Source: an uncultured bacterium
GTDB lineage: Bacteria > CSSED10-310 > CAZUFC01
DNA length: 14,955 bases
Reading direction: 5' to 3'
Assembly (NCBI GenBank): GCA_964619725.1
Contig: CAZUFC010000172.1
Coordinates: 1 to 14,955 of the forward strand
Of the stretch, positions 1 through 14,599 are shown piece by piece; position 1 is the stretch's first letter, and the number at the start of each line of letters is the position of its first letter. Under the pieces are notes generated by a model. It did no database searches. It was not told the origin of the DNA and saw only the letters and a program-made list of their open reading frames with translations. The position numbers were made by a program, and so were the translations under genes.

Positions 1-242
1 TGCGGGGATATGGACGCTCGTAACAGGTTTTGTATGAGAAATGCGGGCTAAATCCGATAGAAGAGCGTTGATTTTATCAAAATCGTGGTGAGAGGGTTCC
101 GATTCCTGCAGATTCAGGCTATCCGGACTGGAGAAAATCGGAGGTACAGCAGCGCCATATCGCGCACGGTTGTAAGGAGGATCGCCTGAATATGCAGGGA
201 GAGGAGCGTTCGTAACAGGTTTCGGATCAGAAATTCGGGTTA
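1..242. repeat. Two direct-repeat copies (1-50 and 193-242) of an IS-terminus-like sequence; probable MITE/IS remnants
   Basis: 1-50 vs 193-242 align without gaps at 39/50 (30/36 over 15-50 vs 207-242: CGCTCGTAACAGGTTTTGTATGAGAAATGCGGGCTA / CGTTCGTAACAGGTTTCGGATCAGAAATTCGGGTTA). Reverse complements begin CCCG(C/A)ATTTCT, resembling IS1380/IS982-type termini. No transposase ORF in the window. Confidence 0.55.
103..200. repeat. Long imperfect inverted repeat (hairpin) inside the repeated unit
   Basis: CCTGCAGATTCAGGCTATCC (105-124) is the reverse complement of 179-198 at 18/20; inner stems TACAGC/GTTGTA and GCGC/GCGC. Confidence 0.7.
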
Positions 243-533
243 TTATCGTCAGAATTGAATAAATCCTTCAAACAATTTTTCAACGCCAGTCCTCAAATTC
301 GTTCTGCACGTAGAATCTATTGCTAACGCATCATGTTTATTTTCCTTTATTTTACGTATGATTCCAAAACCTTCTCAAATTTTTCATTCGTTGTTTTGAT
401 TCCATTTTAAATTTCATTTTTCTTGTTATTCTGTTTGACTTTTACAGAGAAATAATGCATTTAAATAGCATTAAATCCTTTCTTGAAAAGAGCCCCGAAA
501 AAGGAATTGAAGGAGAGAAAGGAACATGCGTAC

Positions 534-606
534 TGCGCTGAAGTTTATGCCCCAAGATATTTGGCTGGATTCACTCGAAAATTCAGCGTGTGTTTGTTTT
601 TTTTTT
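534..606 (+). terminator. Terminator/attenuator-like hairpin in the leader of the surface operon
   Basis: GCGCTGAAGTTT (535-546) pairs with AAAATTCAGCGT (578-589) with one mismatch and one G-U, inner CCAA/TTGG stem, followed by TGTTTG and T10 (597-606); about 95 nt upstream of the ATG at 700. Confidence 0.4.
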
Positions 607-699
607 GGCTGTGTAGAGGTCAGCATTCTTTTTGAAAATTAGTTTCGCGCTTTAATGCGACCTGATTCAGGAATTTAGAGGAAAAGGAGGTGAAAAAGT

Positions 700-1227
700 A
701 TGGATAGCGTGTATTTTGTTTTGAGGGCTTTGGTATTCATATCGGTATTGATTTTAATAGCTTCGCCCATGACGAAAATTGAATCGGCGGGCCAAAGCAG
801 CGAAAATTTCTATGTACCGAAGGATGTAATAAGCATGGGCGGCGCCGAGAAGAGTTCGAGCTCTTTTATGGTTGCGGATACTGTAGGACAATCGTCTGCG
901 ATTGGGGTATCTGATTCTCCGAGTTTTTTAGTATATGGAGGATTCTGGGGACCGGCAGGCATGGTGATTCCGACGGTATTTCCGACTAAAACGCCAACTC
1001 AAACACCGACGGATATACCGCCGACGGAGACGCCGACTAAAACCCCCACTGAAATACCGCCGACAGAGACGCCGACGAGTACGCCGACTGGGTTGACCCC
1101 CAGTCCGACCAGGACTCCTGTTTTGGCGGAGGTTCCTGCGGTCGGATCGACCGGATTGGCGTTGTTGCTCTTAACGTTGAGCGGTTTTGTTTATTTCACG
1201 ACAAGATTCAAAAAATCGAACAAATAA
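700..1227 (+). CDS. Secreted/surface protein: signal peptide, small 'GG..S.S.F...DTVGQ...G.S.S..F.V.GGFW' domain, Pro/Thr linker, C-terminal IPTL-CTERM-like sorting anchor
   Basis: Strong SD AAGGAGGTG at 684-692; hydrophobic N-terminus; GGFW at 937-948; PT repeats; ends VPAVGSTGLALLLLTLSGFVYF-TTRFKKSNK (motif, TM helix, basic tail). Confidence 0.85.
   Translation: MDSVYFVLRALVFISVLILIASPMTKIESAGQSSENFYVPKDVISMGGAEKSSSSFMVADTVGQSSAIGVSDSPSFLVYGGFWGPAGMVIPTVFPTKTPTQTPTDIPPTETPTKTPTEIPPTETPTSTPTGLTPSPTRTPVLAEVPAVGSTGLALLLLTLSGFVYFTTRFKKSNK
970..1119 (+). repeat. Pro/Thr-rich linker repeats
   Basis: PTVFPTKTPTQTPTDIPPTETPTKTPTEIPPTETPTSTPTGLTPSPTRTP; (D/E)IPPTETPT duplicated, with near-identical DNA (ATACCGCCGAC[G/A]GAGACGCCGAC). 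Confidence 0.85.
1132..1224 (+). other. IPTL-CTERM-like tripartite C-terminal protein-sorting signal
   Basis: VPAVGSTG + LALLLLTLSGFVYF + RFKK matches the layout of IPTL-CTERM (IPTLSEWG-hydrophobic-basic), an exosortase-type target; the motif residues are divergent. Confidence 0.6.
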
Positions 1228-1239
1228 AGGAGAAAAAAA

Positions 1240-3261
1240 ATGAAACCAACCATCTTGTTTTTATCAGTCGTCATAACCGCCGTCATGGCGGCAGGGGTCT
1301 CTGGTTCCGTACCTCATCAGATAAATTACCAGGGGCATTTGTACAACACTGCGGGAGAACCGCATGACGGTTCTTTCGATTTTCAATTCGCGATTTATTC
1401 CCAGATGTTCGGGGGAACGGCTCTATGGAACGAAACTCATATCGATGTTACAGTTAACGGCGGACTGTTTAACGTGATATTGGGTTCTCAGGGCAGTCCG
1501 ATAGATTTGCCGTTTGATCAGACGTATTACCTGGGGATGACGGTAGACGGCGAACTTTTGTCTCCGCGCCAGCCTCTGACCAGCGTCGGACAGGCATATA
1601 ATGCGCAAGACGTTTTTAATGAGGACATCAGTCCTGCCAGTATACACATAACAGGCTATGGACAGGTAATTAATTCATCCGGGGAATGGGTCGGTCCCGC
1701 CTCCGGTTTGCAGGGTCCGAGCGGCCCCAGCGGTCCTCAAGGCGCCGCAGGGGCGACAGGAGCTACAGGTCCTCAAGGTCCTACGGGTTCCAGAGGTCCC
1801 AGCGGTCCCAGCGGACCTCAGGGCGCAGCAGGGGCGACAGGAGCTACAGGTCCTCAAGGTCCCCAAGGTCCGACAGGCTCCAGGGGTCCCAGCGGTCCCA
1901 GCGGACCTCAGGGCACAGCAGGGGCGACAGGAGCTACAGGAGCTACAGGTCCTCAAGGTCCTCAAGGTCCTACGGGTTCCAGAGGTCCCAGCGGACCTCA
2001 GGGCGCAGCAGGGGCGACAGGAGCTACAGGTCCTCAAGGTGCGACAGGTTCCAGAGGTCCCAGCGGACCCACGGGATCGACGGGTTCCAGAGGTCCAAGC
2101 GGTCCTGCAGGTCCCGTAGCCGGTTCCAATATGCAATTGATTTATAATAACAACGGGAGTCCCGGCGGAGCCCAGCTTTATTATGACGACAGCAACCACT
2201 ATCTGGGCGTAGGCGATTCGACTCCTTCGCGAGCCCTGGATGTTTATGACTCCTACTGGAGAACAGCCCGATTGAGTTCCGGTTCCGGAGCCATGATGGA
2301 GTACCTTTCTACTTCTTATGAAGACTGGGCGATTGGGAATTGGAGCGGCAGCGTTCGCTTCATATTTTCAGATGACGATTTCGCCACTTCTAGCGACATG
2401 TATTTTTTTGATGAATCCAAGTTTTATCCCTGGAATGATGATTCAATCCTGTTAGGCTTATCGACCAGTCGATGGAGCAATCTATACAGCGTTGACGGTG
2501 ATTTTGAAGGAGATGTGGGAATAGGCACATCTTCCCCGGACGAACGTCTGGAGATAAGCGGCAGCGGCGCCCAGGGTTTGAAAATCACCTCCACCAACAG
2601 CGCAACAACTTCCGTTACTCTGGAAAGGACCGGCACCGGGTATTACGACTGGAGAATGGCCAACAGCGGAGGCGACCTGGAATTCATGATCAGCGATAAC
2701 GACGGAGGTTCCTGGGAATATATGATGACGATGGAACTGGGCGGCGATGTGGGAATAGGTACGACTAACCCGACGGAAAAGCTCACGGTTAAAGGAAACA
2801 TTCTTCTGTTAAGCGAAAGCGACGGCAGCGCTGTGCTGGAACTGGGCGAAGGGCTGGACTATGCTGAAGGATTTAATGTTTCCGATGCCGATGAGATACA
2901 GCCAGGAACGGTTCTGATTATTGATCCGGAAGCTCCCGGCGAACTGAAAGTCAGTGATAGCGCCTACGACAGCAGGGTTGCGGGTATCATTGCCGGAGCA
3001 AATAATATGGGCTCCGGAGTACGTCTGGGCGTCGGTCAATTCGATTATGACGTAGCTCTGGCAGGCCGGGTCTACTGCTGGGCCGATGCCTCCGATGCCG
3101 ATATCAGACCGGGCGACCTTCTCACTACTTCCCCTGTTCCCGGTCACGCCATGAAAGCCTTGAACCGCGAACGGGCTGCAGGAGCCGTTCTCGGTAAAGC
3201 CATGGAAAGTCTGGAAAAAGGTCAAAGAGGGCAGATACTCGTTCTCGTAACCCTGCAATAA
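1240..3261 (+). CDS. Secreted collagen-like, tail-fibre-like protein with a probable C-terminal intramolecular chaperone/autocleavage domain
   Basis: SD AGGAG at 1228-1232; signal peptide; N-terminal 'VP..INYQG.L....G.P..G.F...F.IY....GG..LW.E....V.V..GLF.V.LG' domain; 46 Gly-X-Y triplets; three (L/V)G(V/I)G(D/T)xxP repeats; P..D....LG....RW..LY motif; C-terminal DYAE...VALAGRV...[13 protein letters not shown]...GKA domain. Confidence 0.85.
1705..2118 (+). repeat. Collagen Gly-X-Y tract (46 uninterrupted triplets) built from nested 9-bp and 72-99-bp tandem units
   Basis: Runs from GLQ to GPV; supra-units ending in GSR at 1714-1794, 1795-1884, 1885-1983, 1984-2055 and a short one at 2056-2091. 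Confidence 0.95.
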
Positions 3262-3277
3262 ACGGGAGGCGATAACG

Positions 3278-4816
3278 ATGAAAAAATACATTTTTATTAT
3301 ATTCCTCGCCTGTTCTGCAGCAGCCGCTTGGATGCTGCCGGTTTCAGGCAGTGAAATTGAAGTGATCGTCAATCAGCGGGGCGAATTAGCCTCCAAGGTA
3401 ACGCCGGCTGACGATCCCCTGCTTTTCAGCGTGGATCAGACTCAAGGCAGAATCTTTACCAGGCTGGAAAATACCAGGATTAACATCGTCTCCTTCTTTC
3501 ATCGAAGAAAAATCGGTGAAGCTGTCGTGGAAAAGGACTTCATACGCTATCAGTTCGATACGGAAACAGGCGAACTGATCGAATCGACCAAAAAATGGCG
3601 CGATGACCTGCCGGACGACCTGATGCCGATCATTTCGCAGGAACAAGCTGAAAAACTGGTTGAAGGCAATGTGACATCCGTGCAACTCGTGATCATTTCC
3701 CCGGAATCGGATATTTTCAAGATCGATCCTGTGCCTTATGATCCCTGCTGGATTTTCTGGAGCGATGTTGAAGGCGCCAAAGTCATTACCATCATCGACT
3801 CCATGTACGGCGAAAAACTCGGTTACGGCGTCCCGCCTCCTTACGAAGGGCTGTCAATCCACGGGCCGGACCATCCCCCGAACTGCGATAATAATAACCC
3901 CTGGTGGCTCAATCACGCACAAAACGCAGAAACCTGGTTCGAAACTATGGGATACGATACGCTAAGAATTCCAAGCGCAACCGGTCCGCAACTGGCAGGG
4001 CATATCCAATCCGATTCGACCGTCATGTTCTATGAACTGGACCACGGCGGTTCGACTAACTTCAGAACTCGTTGCGAATATCTCATCTACGCCGCTCCCA
4101 ATCCCGGCGAATACAATATCGAAGAATGGATCGAAAACTACGCTACCATGGGTTTCGCCTTCATCGGAAGTTGCGCAGGCATGTGCAGCACAGGAGACAA
4201 TACCTTCTCCCATGAATTCCGTAAAGGTATGGACACTGACACCGTTGTGGTCGGTTATTGCGGGATGTCTCAGGCCGTCTGCGAAGACGACTGCTGGGGA
4301 GACGCCATCCCCTGGCAAACAGAACTGTTCGATTGGATGAACGACGGATACAGAGTAGGATACGCCTTCGAAAGAGCAAACCTGGCCTATCCCGATTGTA
4401 CGGACGACGGGCATAACTGCATGAGAATCAGCGGCGATGAGAATCTCATAGTCGCCGGCAGCTCATACCCTAACATGAAAAGAAGCTTCTGCGGCTCTAT
4501 CTATGATCTGTTCGGAATTTCCCCTATGCTGCCCGTCCTAAACAGAACTTTCACAAGAGCCCACCACATCCGTTGCAACAGCAGCGTTCCATCAACCTAT
4601 CAACTTACCATCTACGCCAGCACCAGTTACCCCTACAACGAAGTCGCTTTCCTCAACAACGCTGAATTGACCGCTTACGGAGTTCTGGAAGTCGAAACAG
4701 GAAACGGAACCGAAATATCTCTCGTCTCCGTTCAGGACAGAAACAAAGGCATACACCTTAAACCAAACGGATGCCTTCATGCCTACAACGGAGGAGGAAT
4801 TAAAATATACGAATAA
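3278..4816 (+). CDS. Secreted Cys-rich protein, putative clan CD (caspase/gingipain-fold) cysteine peptidase with FTP/PepSY-like propeptide
   Basis: SD GGGAGG at 3264-3269; signal peptide; propeptide-like segments (IISQEQAEKLV...PCWIF...IIDSMYGEKL); hydrophobic strand + HG (MFYELDHGG, H256) and hydrophobic strand + SC (FAFIGSC, C299). The CDS is secure; the product is inferred. Confidence 0.65.
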   Translation: MKKYIFIIFLACSAAAAWMLPVSGSEIEVIVNQRGELASKVTPADDPLLFSVDQTQGRIFTRLENTRINIVSFFHRRKIGEAVVEKDFIRYQFDTETGELIESTKKWRDDLPDDLMPIISQEQAEKLVEGNVTSVQLVIISPESDIFKIDPVPYDPCWIFWSDVEGAKVITIIDSMYGEKLGYGVPPPYEGLSIHGPDHPPNCDNNNPWWLNHAQNAETWFETMGYDTLRIPSATGPQLAGHIQSDSTVMFYELDHGGSTNFRTRCEYLIYAAPNPGEYNIEEWIENYATMGFAFIGSCAGMCSTGDNTFSHEFRKGMDTDTVVVGYCGMSQAVCEDDCWGDAIPWQTELFDWMNDGYRVGYAFERANLAYPDCTDDGHNCMRISGDENLIVAGSSYPNMKRSFCGSIYDLFGISPMLPVLNRTFTRAHHIRCNSSVPSTYQLTIYASTSYPYNEVAFLNNAELTAYGVLEVETGNGTEISLVSVQDRNKGIHLKPNGCLHAYNGGGIKIYE

Positions 4817-4824
4817 AACTTCGT

Positions 4825-4862
4825 AAAAAAAACGGCGCCGGATTTTTGAATTCCGGCGCCGT
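4825..4862 (-). terminator. Rho-independent terminator with its U-tract on the minus strand (may also act on the + operon)
   Basis: Perfect 11-bp stem ACGGCGCCGGA (4832-4842)/TCCGGCGCCGT (4852-4862), 9-nt loop, A8 at 4825-4832; no T-run on the + side. Confidence 0.8.
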
Positions 4863-4910
4863 GTGGACCAGCAAAGTGAGGATGGAGGGAGGCTGGAAGC
4901 ATGGTTCACG
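4825..4910 (-). ncRNA. Candidate small RNA: hairpin with C/U-rich anti-SD loop followed by a terminator
   Basis: Minus strand reads GUGAACCAUGCUUCCAGC-CUCCCUCCAUCCUCACUUU-GCUGGUCCAC, then the terminator. 5' end and promoter not identified. Confidence 0.45.
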
Positions 4911-5347
4911 GGAAAATTTTTTTTATTTGTCGGGCTGATCCTCAGTCCTTGATTTTTATTCTTTTTTTGCATTAATTCTTATTATTTCCTTATTTTGCTC
5001 ATTTGCTTTTTTTCTTTTTTTTCTTATTATGGTCGTGTGGGGTCTTAATGCTGCTGCTTTGTCGGCCCGTTATGATCGAATAATAATAATAATATTTGTT
5101 GTTTTGATAATCGGTAATGAAAATAAGTCTTCCGTAGGGGGTCAATCCGGTTCATGGGGTCAGAAGACTTGATGAGAAAAGGCAAAAATAAGGGATCATT
5201 TTGTCCTGCAGAATCACTTATTATAAATAATCCCCGGGACGACAGTTTTTCAGGATTTTACAATTATGATTTTCATTTATTATGAATACATCAGAAATTT
5301 TTTTTGGCCGAGAAATGCGAATTTGTATATAACTTGGAGAACTAAAA

Positions 5348-7780
5348 ATGAATAACGATCGATATCATCCGTTTAAAGAATCAGTAGAGAATATTTTGCA
5401 CCCGAAGGAATATAAACTGCTGTTCCAGGAATTTGACAAATTAAAATTGCTGTTGGAAAAGTTCCCAATCGGCATAGTAATCATTAATTTTTCCCAGAAG
5501 GTTCACTGGATTAATGAAGCCGCATGCGAAATGATCGGTATAAGCGACAGGGAGGAAACGATAGGAGTCAGTTGCCTGGATCATTTTTGTCCTCCGGATA
5601 TTCATGAGTGTCCATTGTGGGGCGGTAAAAATGGAATAACGAATCAGGAATGCCAAATAACGAGGAAAAACGGTAGTAAAATTTCAGCGATCAAGTCTGC
5701 TCAAACGCTTAAATTGGATGGAGAACCGTTAATACTTGAGGCCATTCAGGATGTGTCGTCTTTGCGTGATATAAGGAAACAACTGATTGAAGCGAACAAG
5801 ATTATCAACAAGAGCGGACTGGTGATATTCAAATGGCAGAATCGACAGGGATGGCCAGTGGAATATGTGACGGAAAATGTTGAAAGGCTTTTTGGTTATA
5901 GGGCGGAAGAATTTATGTCGGGACGAATTTCTTATAAAGAATGCATTCATCCGGATGATAAAGAGCAAGTTGAAGAGGAAGTGATAACGCACAGTAAAAG
6001 AGGGGATAGAGAGGAATTCGAGCATAAACCTTACCGGATAATGACGAAGGCTGGAGAAGAAAAAATCATAAAGGACCTGACGTTCATAGAAAGGACTTCG
6101 AAAGGCGAGGTAACTTCATATAAGGGTATCGTGGAAGATATAACAGGCCGTATTAGGGTACGAGAGTTGCTTGAAGAAAGTGAAGAGCGTTATCGACGTT
6201 TTTTTGAGAATCAGAGAGATGCGTTGATGACGATAGCGCCTCCTGAATGGAAATTCACGTCAGCCAATACGTCAACGCTGGAATTATTCGGATATGAATT
6301 TTTAAAAGATTTTTTAACGCTTGGCCCCTCGGATGTATCCCCCGAAAAGCAACCTGACGGCAGCTTGTCCTCTGAAAAAGCCCGGAAAATGATCGCCATA
6401 TCGATGAAGAAAGGATCGCACTTTTTTGAATGGATGCATGCGCGAAGAAACGGCGAGCTTTTCCCCTGCACGGTTTTGCTGACGTATATAGAAGACCATA
6501 GCGGTCCTCTGGTTCTGGCGACGGTTCGAGACATCAGCGAACGTAAAAGGGCTGAAGAACAAATCAAACTTTCAAACATCGAAATGCAGGCGATAATCAA
6601 TTCTGCGGCAGAAGGGATAAGAATCATAGACAAAGATCGGACTATCAGCCTTGCAAACCGTACATTTTTGTCCATGGTCGAAAAGCCGGAAGAAGAGGTT
6701 ATAGGTAAAAAATGTTATGAAATATTGAACACTCCTCTTTGCAAAACGTCATTCTGTCCGCTGCAGGGAGCGCTTCGGGCAGAGAAACAAGGGGATTATG
6801 AGATTGAACTGGATGTTTCCGGCAAGGGGAAAAAGATATTTTATTTACACACAGCTTTACTCAGCAACGATTACGGAAAGCCATTAGAAGTTATTGAAAC
6901 AATAAGGGATGTAACAAGGCACAAGCATCTGGAGCGTCAAATCAGGCACTCACAAAAAATGGAATCAATCGGCAGTCTGGCTGCAGGTATAGCTCATGAG
7001 ATAAATACTCCGTCTCAGTTCGTCGGAGATAATTTACAATTCATCAAAGATGGGTGGAATGATTTCATGAAATTACTGGAGATTTATAGAAAACTGCGAC
7101 CGCTGGCCGAGAAGGACCCGGACGGAAAAAAACTGATTGCCGACCTGACGAAAGAAGAATCAAAAATCGACATAGAATTTTTGAAGGAAGAAATGCCTGA
7201 TGCCATCAATCAGTCGCTTGAAGGTACAAATCGAATTTCACAGATAGTAAGAGCTATGAAAGAATTCTCTCATCCGTCGTCCAAGGAAAAGGTAGAAATC
7301 GACATCAACAAGGCGATTGAAACGGCCATCACCGTAGCGCGAAACGAATGGAAGTATGTAGCGGAAATGAAAACAGATTATTATCCTGACCTGCCGATGG
7401 CGCTGTGTCTTCCGAATGAAATCAATCAGGTCATCCTCAATTTGATAACGAACGCTGCGCATGCTGTGGGCGAATCAATCAAAGGCGATGGCGATGAAAA
7501 AGGAATCATAAAGGTGATTACTCGTCATGATAAGGTCGAGGATCATGTTGAGATAAAGATCAGCGATACGGGGAGCGGCATTCCTGCCTCGATAAGAGAA
7601 AAGATATTCGATCCTTTTTTCACGACAAAAGAAGCGGGTAAGGGAACGGGACAGGGACTTGCGATAAGCTACGATATTATAGTCAATAAGCACGGCGGGA
7701 GAATAGACTTCGATTCAGAGGAAGGCCGGGGAACTGTTTTCAGAATTCGATTGCCTGTTTCATCCGGCGGTACGGAGTAA
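5348..7780 (+). CDS. Cytoplasmic sensor histidine kinase with four PAS domains (HisKA-HATPase, NtrB-like subfamily)
   Basis: Four PAS/PAC units; H-box [11 protein letters not shown] (H550); N-box [10 protein letters not shown]1 DTGSGI; F-box [10 protein letters not shown]2 GTGQGL; no TM helix; SD GGAG at 5336-5339. Confidence 0.95.
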
Positions 7781-7842
7781 TCGCAGAACGGCTGATGAAA
7801 AAACCAGGGAAGCGCCTATCTGCAAATTGACCGAATGCCGCT

Positions 7843-8991
7843 TCATTCTGCGACTTCAGGATTCATAACGTCGAAAGGCTCCCTTAACTGACCGAAATCA
7901 GCGTAGCTTTTGAGTCGCATTAAAACCGGCGGAGTAACCTTCTGCCCCTTGGGGAACAACAACAGGCCGTTTTTAGTGCGGATGTCTTCATTAAAAATCA
8001 TTCCGCATTTCAAACCCTCATATCGAATTCTCTTCACGTCTTCCTCAATCTTTTCAAAAGATTGCAAAGCATACAGGATATTGGGGTTATAAATATGCTT
8101 TCTTTTCGACATAAATTTGATCGCATAATCGAAATTAGAACCGGAATTTATTATCTGATCGCAATCCAAGGCTATTTTAAGCATCTGAGCGCCGATGGCG
8201 CGGCCCATTTCTTCTTCATCCGGGCGCTCAGAAAGGGAAAACTCGGAAAAAGGTTTATTTTGATTTTCCACCATACCGGCGATGACTTCCATTCTTGGAA
8301 TCCTTTTCAGAAGGTCCGCGCCTATCCTGGCGTGATTCCTGAACATCTCCTCTTCCGTTTTCAACATCACCTTCTGTGAAAACAGTTTTTTAAAAGTAAT
8401 CGGCGGTATCGTGACGCAACCTATCTGAGACAAAAAAGCAGCGGCCTCATATTGCCAGGGATTGCGCAAGGCAAGTTTACGAGACATATGCTTAATGTAA
8501 TCCAGAATACGCAATGTTCGGCTGAAGGCAAGAGGATTGGTCATCGAAATTATCTCACTAATGACCTTGATCACCCCGACAACTGTTTTTTCCAGTAATT
8601 CCCTTTCTTTTCTAATCAGACGATATTGCTCTACACCTGATGCAATCACCTTTTTCAGTTTTTCAGACGAACATGGTTTCGTCAGAAACTTAAATATGGC
8701 TCCCTCGTTCACTGCATCCACGGCTAAATCAAGGTCATACAAACCCGTTATCATTATTCGCGTCGTTTCAGGCAGAAGGTCTTTCACCTTTTGCAACAAC
8801 TCTATGCCGTTCATTCCCGGCATTTTCATATCCGATAATATTACAGCAAAAGGGCCGTCTTCACGGATCAACTTCAACGCGGCATCGCCCTCATCCGCAA
8901 CTCTTATGACATAATCGCCTCTTAAATTTCGTTTGAATGCCGACAATACGTTCTTATCGTCATCGACGCAAAGTATTCTCTCCTTCTTCAA
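7843..8991 (-). CDS. Response regulator: REC + degenerate HD-GYP-like domain (SQIGC) + small C-terminal domain
   Basis: ILCVDDD, SDMKMPGMNG, MITG, FLTKP; AAFLSQIGC in place of LHDIGK; TTG start with SD GAGGGGTG 7 nt upstream. Confidence 0.9.
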   Translation of the reverse strand: MKKERILCVDDDKNVLSAFKRNLRGDYVIRVADEGDAALKLIREDGPFAVILSDMKMPGMNGIELLQKVKDLLPETTRIMITGLYDLDLAVDAVNEGAIFKFLTKPCSSEKLKKVIASGVEQYRLIRKERELLEKTVVGVIKVISEIISMTNPLAFSRTLRILDYIKHMSRKLALRNPWQYEAAAFLSQIGCVTIPPITFKKLFSQKVMLKTEEEMFRNHARIGADLLKRIPRMEVIAGMVENQNKPFSEFSLSERPDEEEMGRAIGAQMLKIALDCDQIINSGSNFDYAIKFMSKRKHIYNPNILYALQSFEKIEEDVKRIRYEGLKCGMIFNEDIRTKNGLLLFPKGQKVTPPVLMRLKSYADFGQLREPFDVMNPEVAE

Positions 8992-9039
8992 TTTTCATCA
9001 CCCCTCAAAATTTGAAATACAACCTCAACTTCAACAACA

Positions 9040-10188
9040 TCAGTCGATTCCGCTATGTTTCACTACTTTGGCTTTTATTCCGATTCCCTTGTAACGTTCT
9101 GCATTGCTTATCTTCATCTTCAACACATCCGTAATTTCTTCCCCTTTACTGACCAGCCTGTTGTTCTCGTCGTCATACAAATCCTCCGCCATTTTCATAC
9201 CTGATTTGATATCCTTAACTTCCAACTCTTCAACATGGAACATTCTCTGACTTTCTTTTAATTCCGATTCCAGAGCCTTCAGTATCTCAGTATTATATGC
9301 CGATGCATCGTTAAATAAACGCTCTAATGCCGCTTTCTCGCTCATAACCTCATTTTTAAACATCACGAAATCTGAAATGCACCTCAATGCTTGTGAAAGA
9401 AAATGCGCATTCCCGGCTTTTTCTGTTGCGGCCTTCTTTTCGTTTCCAGCATCAAATTGCACTAAAGCGAAAGCCTTACAAATGTTTTCAAATTTCGGCA
9501 GATTATCGAGCCATTTTGCGGCTATCCGGGGATGAGAAAAATAAATAATCTGTTCCGCTTTGGTCAGTTCCTCTCCGCTGTTTTTCTTTCTTACAATTTC
9601 ATCAGGGACGGCGACGCATCCGATTTGCGACAGCATGCCTGACATCTCGAATTCCCATATATTCCTGCAGTTAAATCTTCTGCCTATTCTTTTCATCATA
9701 TCCCGGATTTCCGACGATAACCGAAAGGCTTCAGGATTGGTCATCGCCAGAATATCGGTCAGTATTTTCACTGCGCCTTTTACTGTTCCTTCCAGCAACA
9801 TTTTTTCCGATAAGAGCAGTTTATGTTGTTCCACGGCATCCCGAATTATGGGTATGAACTGTTCCTTCTGAACGGGTTTATTAACGAAACGGAAAATATT
9901 ACCTTTATTAATGGAATCGATCGCTGTCTGCAAATCGGCTTTTCCTGTCAGCATTATTCTTACCGTATTCGGACTGACGTCCCGGGCAAGCGCCAGGAAG
10001 GTACTGCCCTTCATTCCGTACATCTGATAATCTGAAATAATCACTGAAAAAGATTTATCGCGTCTTATAATATCCAGTCCCTCTTCTCCGCTTTCGGCAG
10101 TTGCCGTAACATACTCTGAATGAAGAAGTCGTTTTAAGCTTCCCAGCAGCAGTTTATCATCATCGACGATCAATATTTTATCTTTCAT
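9040..10188 (-). CDS. Response regulator: REC + degenerate HD-GYP-like domain (SQIGC) + small C-terminal domain
   Basis: ILIVDDD, SDYQMYGMKG, MLTG, FVNKP; GMLSQIGC. Start placed at 10188 (MKDKIL; SD GGAGAGG; 11-nt overlap with the upstream stop) rather than 10239. Confidence 0.9.
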   Translation of the reverse strand: MKDKILIVDDDKLLLGSLKRLLHSEYVTATAESGEEGLDIIRRDKSFSVIISDYQMYGMKGSTFLALARDVSPNTVRIMLTGKADLQTAIDSINKGNIFRFVNKPVQKEQFIPIIRDAVEQHKLLLSEKMLLEGTVKGAVKILTDILAMTNPEAFRLSSEIRDMMKRIGRRFNCRNIWEFEMSGMLSQIGCVAVPDEIVRKKNSGEELTKAEQIIYFSHPRIAAKWLDNLPKFENICKAFALVQFDAGNEKKAATEKAGNAHFLSQALRCISDFVMFKNEVMSEKAALERLFNDASAYNTEILKALESELKESQRMFHVEELEVKDIKSGMKMAEDLYDDENNRLVSKGEEITDVLKMKISNAERYKGIGIKAKVVKHSGID

Positions 10189-11383
10189 CCGACCTCTCCG
10201 TTCGTTCGCCATCCCTGCCGGCGTCATTCGCTTTTTCAATCACCATAAAGGGCTCCTTTATGCCGATTCTTTCTTTGAAATTCTCCAACCGTATTTTTAT
10301 TGATTCTGTGACTTCCATGCCCTGTGCGGCAAGTATCGTCCCGTCGCTGGAAATGATATTCTCGTTGAGTATCATCCCGCAGAACAGTTCTTTTAAAGAA
10401 ACTTTCCTGAAATCATCACTTTCGTATTGTGATTCGTAACCTGAAAACGTTTTCACTATTTCAGGATCATACACATCATCCTGTTCCAGCATGCTTCTTA
10501 TCGCTTGTTTCTGGGTCATGCCTTCAATCACCATTTTATCTAGGTCAAGCGTGAATTTAAGAATTTGAGCTCCGGTAAAGATGTCGGCTGTATCTTCTCT
10601 TCCCGTTTTATGATTCGACTTTTCCTCCAGGAGCCTCCGGAAAGGAATATTCTGTCGTTTAATTATCTCGGAAACAGTTTTCATCCGCGGTATCTTGTCC
10701 AACAACTCAGCGCCTTTCTCCGGATATTTCCGGACCATCTCCTTCTCAGTATTCGTCAACGATTTGCCGTGCAGCATTTTATCCAGGATTTCCGCGGTTA
10801 ACGTCACGCAACCTATCTGAGAAAGCATTGCAGACATCTCTATCTGCCAGCCATTTTTCAATCTCATTTTATCGCAGATATAACTGACGTATTTGTGCGT
10901 TCTGGCCGCCCGGCTGAATGCGGGCGGATTCACCAGGGCTAATACTTCTGAAAGCATTTTGATGCTCCCTGTTAGGGTCTTTCCCAGCAATTCCTTTTCG
11001 GCGGTATTCAGTTTGTATTGATCTATTCCGGACTTAATCGTCGTCCTTAAAATTTCCATAGAACAGGGCTTTCTTAAAAAACGAAATATGTTTCCTTCAT
11101 TAACCGCATTGACGGCTGTTTCAACATCTGCGTAACCCGTCAACATTATTCTCACTGTATCTCTTGATCTTTCCCTCACTTTGGATAACAAATCAATGCC
11201 GTTCATTCCCGGCATCCGCATATCCGAGACGACTACGGCAAACGGCGTTCCTTTTTCATCTATTATTTTTAAGGCTTCTTCCCCCCCATTGGCCGTGAAG
11301 ACGGAAAAATAATTACGCATGCTCCGTTTAAAACTTGAAAGGATATTTACATCATCGTCGACCATTAAAACTTCCTTATTCAT
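10178..11383 (-). CDS. Response regulator: REC + degenerate HD-GYP-like domain (SQIGC) + small C-terminal domain
   Basis: VLMVDDD, SDMRMPGMNG, MLTG, FLRKP; AMLSQIGC; 8-nt overlap with the upstream gene. Confidence 0.9.
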   Translation of the reverse strand: MNKEVLMVDDDVNILSSFKRSMRNYFSVFTANGGEEALKIIDEKGTPFAVVVSDMRMPGMNGIDLLSKVRERSRDTVRIMLTGYADVETAVNAVNEGNIFRFLRKPCSMEILRTTIKSGIDQYKLNTAEKELLGKTLTGSIKMLSEVLALVNPPAFSRAARTHKYVSYICDKMRLKNGWQIEMSAMLSQIGCVTLTAEILDKMLHGKSLTNTEKEMVRKYPEKGAELLDKIPRMKTVSEIIKRQNIPFRRLLEEKSNHKTGREDTADIFTGAQILKFTLDLDKMVIEGMTQKQAIRSMLEQDDVYDPEIVKTFSGYESQYESDDFRKVSLKELFCGMILNENIISSDGTILAAQGMEVTESIKIRLENFKERIGIKEPFMVIEKANDAGRDGERTERSDER

Positions 11384-12599
11384 TGACCGCCTTCTCCATA
11401 TTTGAATTCAAACGTTCATACCATTCATTAATCCGGTCGGCTATTCCTAACTGTTCAAGAAAACTTAAATTCATTACTTCTCCGGCATCTTCCTCATCCA
11501 ATCCCTCATTCTTCCCGGCAAAAAAATTCGCCACATATACTCCAACCATCGCATCCGGTTCCTCAACCAATATCTTCTCAGGCGTATGGTGAAAGGCTAC
11601 CGCTTCAATCACAGGATTAGGCAAACCCCACAACCCCAGCAAATAAGCCCCGATCTCCGCATGAGTCAAATTGAATACTCTCTGCTCAGCCTTATGACAG
11701 GGCATTTTTTCTTCTTCCGTCAATTCTTTTACTTTTTTGTAATCCTCCGGCAGGTTAACTGCTAATATAATTTTGCCGATATCGTGCATCATACCCGCCA
11801 GGAAAGCGAAATCCGATATCTTCCTGTCAGCCTTGCAGAAACCCAATATTTCCTTTGAATAATTCCCTACCAGCCTGCTGTGATTCCATAATTTCTCTAT
11901 CGATAAACATTGTTTGATTTTTTCCTGATCGAATTGTGAAAAAATATGTATGGAAAGCACCAACGATTTGACTATCTCCAGCCCTAAAAGCACCACGGCC
12001 TGCGACGGACTGGAAACATGCTGAGGAATTCCGAAAAATGCCGAATTAACCAACTGAAGTATCTTGGCGCTCATTCCTATGTCTTCTTCAATAATTTCTT
12101 TGATCTTATTCATCGACGGTTCAGACGACAACAATTCTTCCTGTATCTTTTTATAGAGCGTCGGCAAACTCGGCAATGTCTCCAACTGAGTTACCATGCT
12201 CTTTATTCTCTCATCAGCTAGAAGATCAAGAAGCGTACAAGCCCGATTGATAGTCGCTTTCAACAACTCCGGATCACACGGTTTGGAGAGATACTGATGC
12301 GTCGGCATGACGGATTCCATTATCATATCTCTGTCGGAATGGCCTGAAAGGATTATCCGGACCGTTTGAGGATATTCTTCTTTGATTTTTTTCAACAACG
12401 CGGCTCCGTCCATACCCGGCATCCGCATATCGCTGACCACCACGTGATACTTTTTTTCTTTCATTACTTCCAAAGCCGCCTCACCGCTTTCAATAAAATC
12501 CATATCCCATTCACGCCGCATGCTTCTCAGCATCCTCCGAAGTCCCTGTAAAACCTTCGGCTCATCATCTACAAAAAGAATTCTTCTGAGCTCCTCCAT
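11376..12599 (-). CDS. Response regulator with HDOD output domain (REC-HDOD)
   Basis: ILFVDDE, SDMRMPGMDG, ILSG, YLSKP; HDOD motifs LPSLP, ILQLVNSAFFG, AVVLLG, LWNHS, AGMMHDIGK, HAEIGAYLL..WGLP, AFHH. Start 12599 has SD-like AAGGAAGGA; the alternative start 12656 overlaps the kinase stop (ATGA). Confidence 0.92.
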   Translation of the reverse strand: MEELRRILFVDDEPKVLQGLRRMLRSMRREWDMDFIESGEAALEVMKEKKYHVVVSDMRMPGMDGAALLKKIKEEYPQTVRIILSGHSDRDMIMESVMPTHQYLSKPCDPELLKATINRACTLLDLLADERIKSMVTQLETLPSLPTLYKKIQEELLSSEPSMNKIKEIIEEDIGMSAKILQLVNSAFFGIPQHVSSPSQAVVLLGLEIVKSLVLSIHIFSQFDQEKIKQCLSIEKLWNHSRLVGNYSKEILGFCKADRKISDFAFLAGMMHDIGKIILAVNLPEDYKKVKELTEEEKMPCHKAEQRVFNLTHAEIGAYLLGLWGLPNPVIEAVAFHHTPEKILVEEPDAMVGVYVANFFAGKNEGLDEEDAGEVMNLSFLEQLGIADRINEWYERLNSNMEKAVNE

Positions 12600-12652
12600 T
12601 TTTTCCTTCCTTTTCTTCGCTGTCCGTTTTTCAGAAATCTGGAATTGACTTT

Positions 12653-14599
12653 TCATACCGGTAAACGGACAATGAAAGTCGTCCCCTCCCCACTCTCCGT
12701 TTCAAAATCGATCGTACCGCCGTGTCTGTTCACTACCGAATTATGAACGATCGATAATCCCTGACCGGTTCCAACCCCGACCTCCTTCGTCGTAAAAAAG
12801 GGATCGAATATTCTTTCCCTGATATCATTATTAATGCCGCTTCCCGAATCTATCACCCTTATCTCAACGTAATCGCCGTCACGGCCGGTCGTTATTCTGA
12901 TCTTTCCCTTTTCATCCGATTCCTCTTTGACCTTGCCGGATACGGCATGGGCGGCATTGACGATCAAATTCAGCATAATTTGATTGAAATCGCCCGGAAT
13001 ACAAAAAATCATAGGTATTCCCGGATCAAACTCCGTCTCCATATCCGCCGTGTATTTCCACTCATTGCGAGTAACCGTAATCGCATTTTCTATCGCCTTA
13101 TTAATATCCATCAGCGTTTTCTCCGAATTTCCGGGATGAGAAAAATTCTTCATCGCCGCGACGATCCTGGTGACTCTTGAAATACCCTCCTGTGACTGCT
13201 CTATCGCGTCAGGCATCTCACTCAACAGATAATCCTTCTCTATTTCTTCAGACAATGCCTCAATCCTGTCCAGCAGCTCAACCGCAATTTCCTCTTTTCT
13301 GCAACGCTCAACCAGCTTTTCATATTCATCGATTAACTCGCTCAAACTGTTGAAACCTTCAGACAAAAAGCGCACGTTGTCCCCCACATATTGAGTGGGC
13401 GTATTTATTTCATGAGCGATACCGGCCGCCAACTGTCCTATTGATTCCATTCTCTGCATCTGGGTCATTTGAGTTTGAGACTGCTTTCTTTCCGTTATAT
13501 CAGCGCCCAGCAATACAAATCCGATAATAGAACCCAGATTGCAAACCGGATTGATGGTGAGTCCCAGCAACCTTCTGCTTCCGTCTTTTTGAGATAAACA
13601 TACGTCATCCAGCTTCAACTGCTTCCCCTCTTTTCTGCTCTCCTCAATTCCCTCCATTATTTTGTCCCATTCCCAACCAATTTCTATCTCTTCCAAAGGC
13701 CTACCGAGAATCTCCTCTGAGTTGATCTCAAAAATGCATTCTGCCTGGGCATTAAACATAGAAACCCTGGTATCGCTGTAAAGACTTATAAAAATTGACG
13801 AAATGGAAGAAAACAACTTAGAATAATACTCATACAGTCTCTTGATCATTTCGTCAAAACGTCGCTTGTATCCAGAGCCGCTTATGGCGCCCATTATTTG
13901 AAGACCCCGCCCCAGCTCTATGGCCTTTAAAATCAGTATGACGAGTTTCTGGCTCCCGTCTTTCCGCTTCATCGGAAAACTCTCTGTTACCTTTGCTTCG
14001 CTATCCGGCATCTGCTCACATTCTTTCAACAGCTCATTAAAAAAATAGTACGTATCCTTCTTGAATATGAGGTCTTTCAATTCCATTCCTTTCATTTCTT
14101 CCGCTTCATATCCCAGCATCCTGCAGAAATTGGAATTGAAATCCAGTATCCTGCGCTTCGAAGCATCGGCAAAAAATATCCCATGCGAAGCATTCTCAAA
14201 GACAGCGGTGTACTTCTCTTGAAATTCGCGCTGACTTTTCGCCTTCTCCTGAAGGTCCGTTAAGTCGATACCCAAAAAACAAATATTATCGGAATTGTCC
14301 AGCGCCTTGTAACAATATTCATCCGGCAGAGTATGCCACGAAATATCCCGGACTCCTCCCCCCTTCTTTTTCAAACGTATGATTGCACCATTAAATTTTT
14401 CACCCTTCTCGCGCAATATCTCAACCAGCCTCCGAACGTAAGGCTTTCCACTCTCATATTCTCTTATCTTGCTTGAATCCTTCAGTATCTCTTCAGTCTT
14501 GTAACCCGTTACCGCTTCACATTCCGAATTCCAATACACAACTCTGTTTTGTTCATTTACAATAATGCACAACATAAACAAATTCCCGTATTCGTCCAT
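12653..14599 (-). CDS. Cytoplasmic sensor histidine kinase with three PAS domains, paralog of 5348-7780
   Basis: Three PAS-like units; H-box [11 protein letters not shown] (H396); [30 protein letters not shown]; no TM helix. Start lacks a clear SD. Confidence 0.93.
   Translation of the reverse strand: MDEYGNLFMLCIIVNEQNRVVYWNSECEAVTGYKTEEILKDSSKIREYESGKPYVRRLVEILREKGEKFNGAIIRLKKKGGGVRDISWHTLPDEYCYKALDNSDNICFLGIDLTDLQEKAKSQREFQEKYTAVFENASHGIFFADASKRRILDFNSNFCRMLGYEAEEMKGMELKDLIFKKDTYYFFNELLKECEQMPDSEAKVTESFPMKRKDGSQKLVILILKAIELGRGLQIMGAISGSGYKRRFDEMIKRLYEYYSKLFSSISSIFISLYSDTRVSMFNAQAECIFEINSEEILGRPLEEIEIGWEWDKIMEGIEESRKEGKQLKLDDVCLSQKDGSRRLLGLTINPVCNLGSIIGFVLLGADITERKQSQTQMTQMQRMESIGQLAAGIAHEINTPTQYVGDNVRFLSEGFNSLSELIDEYEKLVERCRKEEIAVELLDRIEALSEEIEKDYLLSEMPDAIEQSQEGISRVTRIVAAMKNFSHPGNSEKTLMDINKAIENAITVTRNEWKYTADMETEFDPGIPMIFCIPGDFNQIMLNLIVNAAHAVSGKVKEESDEKGKIRITTGRDGDYVEIRVIDSGSGINNDIRERIFDPFFTTKEVGVGTGQGLSIVHNSVVNRHGGTIDFETESGEGTTFIVRLPV

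Follow-up and report, generated by a model that had tools for sequence, protein, structure and literature searches.

The three genes at positions 700 to 4816 of contig CAZUFC010000172.1, from an uncultured bacterium of the lineage CSSED10-310, are predicted to encode a surface appendage in which a sorted anchor (gene A) holds a secreted fibre (gene B) and the fibre bears an exchangeable enzyme cargo (gene C). The analysis is sequence-based and treats this cassette on the + strand of a window of 14,955 nt, the window being the whole stretch of DNA examined. The reading as a whole, for which the support is genomic and indirect, is reasonably probable. Docking of the fibre on A is likely, and carriage of C on the fibre tip is somewhat favoured. 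Both the pairing of adaptor and fibre and its setting on the cell surface without a phage, as proposed in a preliminary description of this DNA, have strong support from the order of the genes, from their joint occurrence in several phyla and from the swapping of anchor tails. The features of the cassette, with open reading frame abbreviated as ORF and amino acids as aa, are as follows.

700..1227, + strand: gene A, candidate adaptor, 175 aa (ORF and module profile searches)
790..951, + strand: GQ...GGFW module of gene A (aa 31-84), predicted docking plug (alignments)
970..1131, + strand: Pro/Thr-rich stalk of gene A (sequence)
1132..1227, + strand: IPTL-CTERM-like sorting tail of gene A, with VPxxG, hydrophobic helix and basic end (genome tail profile)
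1240..3261, + strand: gene B, secreted fibre, 673 aa (ORF and family scans)
1306..1599, + strand: fibre N-terminal YQG domain (N-domain), predicted six-strand beta-sandwich, distant Bdello_MAT_N relative (profile and structure model)
1705..2118, + strand: collagen Gly-X-Y stretch (PF01391, 74 bits)
2845..3261, + strand: C-terminal tip domain of gene B; D540-x-A542-E543 is invariant, and there is a weak likeness to Peptidase_G2 / D4 tailspike chaperones (alignment, weak profile matches)
3278..4816, + strand: gene C, secreted predicted clan-CD cysteine protease, 512 aa (homologues and structure model)
4043..4174, + strand: predicted catalytic dyad, His256 (4043-4045) and Cys299 (4172-4174), both invariant in all 86 aligned homologues
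4475..4816, + strand: C-terminal all-beta domain of gene C, about 110 aa, candidate fibre-attachment domain (loci, alignment, model)

Adaptor and fibre

The genes are separated by gaps of 12 and 16 nt, GGAG or GGAGG stands ahead of each, and each product has a hydrophobic, signal-peptide-like N-terminus (judged by eye), so the tight packing, Shine-Dalgarno sites and signal peptides described earlier all hold. The genome encodes six module ORFs. Five of them are small proteins that stand alone, and for four of the five the next gene downstream is a fibre gene (binomial p about 8e-8, with 7,500 genes assumed). A scan of GTDB with a DNA motif of the module gave at least 119 loci, 80 of them with flanks. 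Among the matches listed, a hidden Markov model (HMM) confirmed the module in 72 of these 80, and an N-domain lay within about 2.4 kb of it in 46 of the 72, always on the same strand and either upstream or downstream. The neighbourhood of GGFW modules and YQG domains pointed out in the preliminary description is thus real. The record titles of the listed matches include Verrucomicrobiota, Planctomycetota, Chloroflexota, Bacteroidota, Zixibacteria, WOR-3, Calditrichota, Eisenbacteria, Acidobacteriota and Lysobacterales.

The two families are also linked across genomes, which was the check proposed for the docking idea. Within the phylum of this bacterium, seven of 14 genomes carry both module and N-domain and seven carry neither. 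A sample of 121 Chloroflexota genomes contained 15 with both, one with the N-domain only and 105 with neither, and the copy numbers rise together (22 against 30, 6 against 8, 4 against 5, and many 1 against 1). Among 151 Bacteroidota genomes, 16 have both, 36 the N-domain only and 99 neither. None of these 286 genomes of three phyla has the module without the N-domain. One fibre locus was taken from each of 20 of the 36 N-domain-only Bacteroidota, and all 20 have an adjacent same-strand protein with a signal peptide (by eye), mostly small and with a tail of the type IX secretion system (T9SS). The module HMM weakly matches four of these neighbours. The mature N-termini of the other 16 match the module profile by hhalign (94%, E 9e-8; the N-domain, as a control against the same 16-protein profile, gives 0.7%), so the gap in Bacteroidota is largely one of divergence. 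At one of these loci (L183) the module of the fibre-adjacent protein looks truncated.

Two apparent fusions of module and fibre were set aside. In P0070 the adaptor gene is read through into the fibre gene, with the tail and a second signal peptide inside. L088 2225-2950 (-) joins part of an N-domain to the final two thirds of a module and to a dockerin; this chimera stands beside an intact fibre gene, has no full-length relatives (by coverage) and looks like a one-off deletion.

The module belongs to a large unnamed family. A profile built from 11 sequences matched 2,603 cluster representatives at E<=0.001; an earlier profile of six sequences had missed two of the seven carriers in the bacterium's own phylum. 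Pfam has no model for this family or for the N-domain family, an atlas search gave unnamed clusters only (0.84 for the module, 0.93 for the N-domain), and a word-indexed homologue search with the module returned only paralogues from the same genome. In most of the 150 matches listed the module directly follows the signal peptide and the C-terminal part varies. Among 95 scanned module proteins the tails include 25 dockerins, four T9SS tails and single CFI-box-, IPTL-, PEP-, GPS-CTERM and LPXTG-like matches, the IPTL one being the sole match to TIGR04174/PF18203 in the set. Several module proteins have other architectures. L008 3481-3660 (same genome, C19) places the module inside a 1,228-aa sorted surface protein, away from the N-terminus. 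Two or three tandem modules occur in P0004, P0012, P0039 and P0007, and could let one anchor hold several fibres. In Bacteroidota, the proteins of L104, L115, L124 and L190 (about 920 aa) open with a divergent module, and three of the four are beside a fibre gene.

Gene A itself consists of a signal, the module, a Pro/Thr stalk and a tail of VPxxG, hydrophobic and basic segments. The preliminary description of a small protein that is little more than a module on a stalk therefore stands, and what it called a membrane anchor is more aptly taken for a sorting signal of the exosortase type. The tail matches a profile made from 108 other tails of the genome, gene A not being a seed (E 2.3e-7), and 178 ORFs of the genome match this profile at E<1e-3. 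No direct match of the tail to TIGR04174, PF18203 or NCBIfam was found. An exosortase-family gene, sought as a check on this point, is present and well above the family signature cut-off (TIGR04178, 65.7 against 23 bits; PF09721 also over its cut-off), the enzyme falling just under the XrtH cut-off (76.6 against 86 bits). In L001 837-2025 it is followed by a second membrane-protein gene without an NCBIfam match, a possible exosortase partner. None of the 84 ORFs with an N-domain matches the tail profile, which bears out the claim that the fibre has no sorting tail of its own; the fibres thus lack the usual surface tag of this cell, and A is little more than a module with that tag. The module holds three strand-like segments of the form S-x-x-[YF]-x-hydrophobic, which suggests that one chain might bind three fibre protomers.

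The 84 N-domain ORFs (two are halves of one split gene) form a paralogous mosaic family with a constant N-domain and diverse C-termini. Such expansions contrast in number with the modules: 84 N-domains against six module genes in this genome (G000), and 79 against two in G003. In both genomes several fibre ORFs break inside the collagen at assembly gaps or contig ends. A monomer model of the N-domain gives a six-strand sandwich over residues 1-96, with a predicted local distance difference test score (pLDDT) above 85 for residues 1-90, and 25 residues after residue 96 are not resolved. Foldseek found no match of this model in PDB at E<=0.001, and VIA-align gave generic beta-sandwich matches only (best Z 7.0, root-mean-square deviation 2.5, 82 aligned). 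The label of a phage-like fibre is owed to shaft and tip motifs; the listed PHROGs tail fibre matches do not carry it, as they fall almost wholly on collagen. Collagen shafts and MAT fibres are trimeric, and fibre B is accordingly predicted to be a trimer.

Hydrolases downstream of DxAE-tip fibres

A structure model of gene C (pLDDT 92.1) has a PepSY-like propeptide, a caspase/CHAT-fold domain and a C-terminal beta-rich domain. Its best Foldseek matches are SAVED-CHAT 8tl0 (E 1.2e-5) and caspases, as expected of the caspase-hemoglobinase fold, and the N-terminal part resembles PepSY-type domains (5boi, vibriolysin propeptide, E 2.5e-5). The sequence has no match in Pfam, NCBIfam or PDB; 293 homologues of comparable length were found. 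Gene C is thus predicted to be a clan CD cysteine protease with an intact His-Cys dyad, resembling caspase/CHAT proteases in its His-Gly...Ser-Cys dyad and differing from them in being secreted and in having the PepSY-like propeptide. A metagenome scan for it gave two near-identical loci only, and one of 401 genomes was positive in the phylum of G290.

The C-terminal beta domain accompanies the fibre system. Gene C with this domain occurs at five loci (the window, C71, L108 and the near-identical L210 and L211), each time beside a fibre gene, a module gene or both. The order is fibre, C, A in L108 and C, A in L210/L211; in C71, in the same genome as the window, C follows an N-domain-only remnant and a module gene is 2.7 kb further on. 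By comparison, at ten loci where the catalytic domain of C comes with a different C-terminus, neither a fibre nor a module lies within 1.5 kb. The presence of the domain in 115 of 120 gene C homologues is a circular, length-filtered count and was not used as evidence. The C71 locus (L006 6942-8920) is the closest paralogue of the cassette, and its N-domain-only fibre runs straight into the C paralogue, for which a signal peptide of its own is not evident. There are no Ns in the region, and the reduction of the fibre is probably a real internal deletion.

Gene C is one of several hydrolase-like genes found after fibres with the DxAE tip. Nine fibres of the genome have this tip, and seven precede a secreted hydrolase-like gene: a C10 peptidase, a trypsin-like protein, two CHAP proteins, a C39 protein, gene C itself and one HExxH protein (recognised by eye; no Pfam match). 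The two exceptions are the weakest, partial tip matches. A close co-directional downstream ORF is found at just 12 of the 49 other complete fibres. An automated signal-peptide filter of downstream genes was too crude (2/8 against 1/49), and the cargo counts are from Pfam and reading by eye.

The same arrangement recurs in a sample of one class, that of G289, whose record title names Planctomycetota: 17 of 151 genomes carry the tip domain, with 37 matches. Thirty loci were taken and 29 analysed, the one of L108 being left out; 27 have a downstream ORF, of which 26 were scanned and the remaining one is another fibre. Hydrolase families follow the tip fibre in 18 of the 29 loci and comprise M12, M43, astacin, S8, beta-lactamase fold, metallophosphoesterase and exo/endonuclease-phosphatase types. 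A domain of about 70 aa, usually terminal, is common to 16 of the 27 downstream proteins, many of which are cut by the locus edge, and a module gene is within 1.5 kb in seven of the 29 loci. The CHAP and C39 proteins, at L204 198-788 (-), L205 720-1262 (-) and L206 2531-3721 (+), end in short cysteine-rich tails, which are candidates for a third type of attachment.

The tip domain itself resembles the Peptidase_G2/D4 chaperones of phage tailspikes (PF11962; PDB 28nb) in its C-terminal place and its D-x-A-E motif. The profile similarity is weak (E 0.012 in two of 11 members, and E 0.15), and there is no significant Peptidase_G2 match for gene B or elsewhere in a search of the genome. The phi29 protein gp12 undergoes autocleavage at a D-x-A-E motif, a point that our literature search did not confirm.

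Weighing of the alternatives

The preferred reading would run as follows. A, B and C, given their signal-like N-termini, would be exported by the Sec system. The exosortase-family enzyme would then cleave A and attach it to the envelope, consistent with the tail family of A and the enzyme gene. B would trimerise through its collagen and shaft. The three segments of A may bind three N-domains, one module per trimer, as the linkage of the genes suggests; the beta-strand complementation put forward in the preliminary description would be one conceivable mode of docking. The DxAE tip, self-cleaved or not, would form a site for the C-terminal beta domain of C. The protease would thereby be held tens of nanometres off the cell, where it could attack a substrate, matrix or other cells. 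The roughly 80 fibres of the genome without an adjacent adaptor would share the six module proteins in trans. A homotrimer carrying a single chain has parallels: in the phage gp37-gp38 adhesin and in VgrG-PAAR of the type VI secretion system one chain caps a trimeric spike. They serve as an analogy for one chain on the base (A) or the tip (C) of a homotrimer, with no homology claimed.

Several observations weigh against this reading. On the adaptor side, 80 of the 84 N-domain ORFs of the genome have no adjacent module gene, and the fifth small module gene (C40) has no fibre beside it. Among the listed GTDB matches, 26 of the 72 loci have no N-domain in range, and at about ten of these a fibre-like gene leaves the locus edge or sits two genes upstream (by eye). 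The similarity among the three segments of the module is statistically weak (hhalign probability 8-28%), and the N-domain model folds confidently alone, with no sign that it needs a donated strand. Fisher p-values for the co-occurrence are overstated, since the genomes are related and the centres were picked for carrying the module. On the cargo side, the genome has two C paralogues with other C-termini, and one of them, C37, has its own sorting tail and lies two genes from a fibre gene. The C-terminal domain of C shows no detectable relationship to the ~70-aa domain found in the Planctomycetota cargoes (hhalign 4%), and the CHAP and C39 proteins bear other tails, so that a single docking site would have to accept several unrelated ligands.

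Three other explanations were weighed. The least probable of them, and one we regard as quite improbable, is that the cassette is a co-transferred set of surface proteins that make no physical contact, the module being an independent small adhesin. The cassette does have a higher GC content (50-61%) than its flanks (34-46%; whole genome 47%), and the genome is full of sorted surface proteins. That explanation sits poorly with the finding that no genome of the three phyla sampled has the module alone and that the module stays with the fibre through changes of tail, tip and gene order. It is also unlikely, if less so, that the module is a transient escort for export and assembly, tagging the fibre and nucleating its trimer, with fibres and enzymes then released to the medium or matrix. 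Many modules are fused to a T9SS tail or dockerin and not to a membrane helix, and six modules for about 84 fibres here, or two for 79 in G003, would suit a reusable factor. Against this stand the parallel scaling of module and fibre copies in Chloroflexota and the Pro/Thr stalk and sorting tail, which are usual for retained surface proteins.

The remaining alternative keeps the adaptor-fibre pair and has C process the fibre or adaptor by maturing, trimming or shedding it. It takes up the earlier suggestion that the third gene matures or releases the fibre, which we do not favour. The predicted caspase/CHAT fold with its intact dyad would suit such a role, and the order of C with fibre and adaptor is kept in unrelated taxa (L108, L210/L211). 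Set against these are the many unrelated classes found in the same slot after tip fibres (CHAP, C10, C39, trypsin-like, M12, M43, S8, serine-hydrolase, beta-lactamase-fold, phosphoesterase and endonuclease/phosphatase types), for which cargo is a better fit than a dedicated maturase, and the lack of any such gene at most fibre-adaptor pairs. The tip domain may also be its own autocleaving chaperone, although the similarity behind this is weak. C is therefore probably not a maturase, and we put processing in general at a low likelihood, between those of the two preceding explanations.

A prophage origin of the cassette was rejected, as its genes have signal peptides and no phage-like genes are evident among the window ORFs (by eye). 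A search of IMG/VR with the module DNA motif gave five matches, all with out-of-frame spacing and none in frame, and tblastn with one N-domain found no match in 50,697 phage records or in plasmid collections, at single-sequence sensitivity. Rfam gave no match in window positions 1-5400, and a search of the assembly turned up no 16S gene. Just past gene C (4832-4862) there is a perfect 11-bp inverted repeat with an A-run ahead of it and a T-run on the minus strand, which looks like an intrinsic terminator. Beyond it, at 5348-14599, are two PAS histidine kinases and three HD-type and one HDOD response regulators (by motif), a cluster with a GC content below that of the cassette and unrelated to it.

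Known systems and significance

Gene B is closest to the MAT fibres of Bdellovibrio bacteriovorus. In each case a large paralogous family of secreted mosaic fibres, phage-like in character, combines a conserved N-domain with tips that vary, and 54 of 71 aligned N-domains match NF053851 at E<=0.01 (best E 3e-11), with different paralogues of this genome covering both halves of the profile. The similarity is distant: gene B scores 27.1 bits against a cut-off of 60, and none of the 60 matches in the genome (best 39.7 bits) is above it. The fibres described here differ further in their collagen shafts, the adjacent adaptor gene and the hydrolase genes after one type of tip. According to the part of Caulton et al. 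2024 (PMC10769870) consulted, the N-domain of MAT fibres is presumed to attach to some component of the surface that awaits identification.

The module also matches the N-terminus of PamT, the tip pilin of the Pam pilus in the Candidate Phyla Radiation (CPR). Of the 95 module proteins, 90 match NF058579 (best E 1.4e-10). In gene A, the one protein for which the aligned range was inspected, residues 12-84, which include part of the signal peptide, align to its positions 6-79. Gene A was nevertheless rejected as a member of PamT: it has no counterpart to the remainder of the 241-position profile, the immunoglobulin-like pilin domain among it, scores 24.5 against 240 bits, and has no pilin or chaperone genes beside it. 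In the excerpt consulted of the Pam pilus preprint (Troman et al., PMC13278184), a tail fibre-like gene is consistently co-located with the pam operon across CPR lineages. Together with the module match, this suggests that such fibres may attach to the tip of the pilus through PamT.

The sorting system of A resembles IPTL-CTERM/exosortase H (TIGR04174, TIGR04177) in the Pro motif, hydrophobic helix and basic end of 178 tails and in the exosortase-family gene; since the tail misses TIGR04174/PF18203 and the enzyme does not reach the XrtH threshold, it is taken as a lineage variant. A literature search, mostly outside subscription papers, found no paper on the adaptor or on the cargo cassette.

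We raise tentatively the broader possibility that the module is a universal single-chain plug, joining MAT-type fibres to exosortase or T9SS tails, to dockerins and to the tip pilin of CPR Pam pili, and that one class of fibre tip loads hydrolases. The anchoring of tag-less phage-like fibres is an open question stated for the Bdellovibrio MAT adhesins in the consulted part of that paper (PMC10769870), and host recognition by Pam pili is one for CPR bacteria in the preprint excerpt (PMC13278184). Both questions become directly testable, with two short recombinant domains, through a candidate partner of 55 residues that occurs from Chloroflexota to Bacteroidota and matches PamT. If the proposal is correct, many phyla would share a modular, phage-free appendage of anchor, fibre and enzyme, which would provide both the anchor that Bdellovibrio-type fibres need and the tip by which CPR pili bind the host. 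Fibres that carry enzymes, if they exist, would give their owners a means of acting on substrates or prey from a distance.

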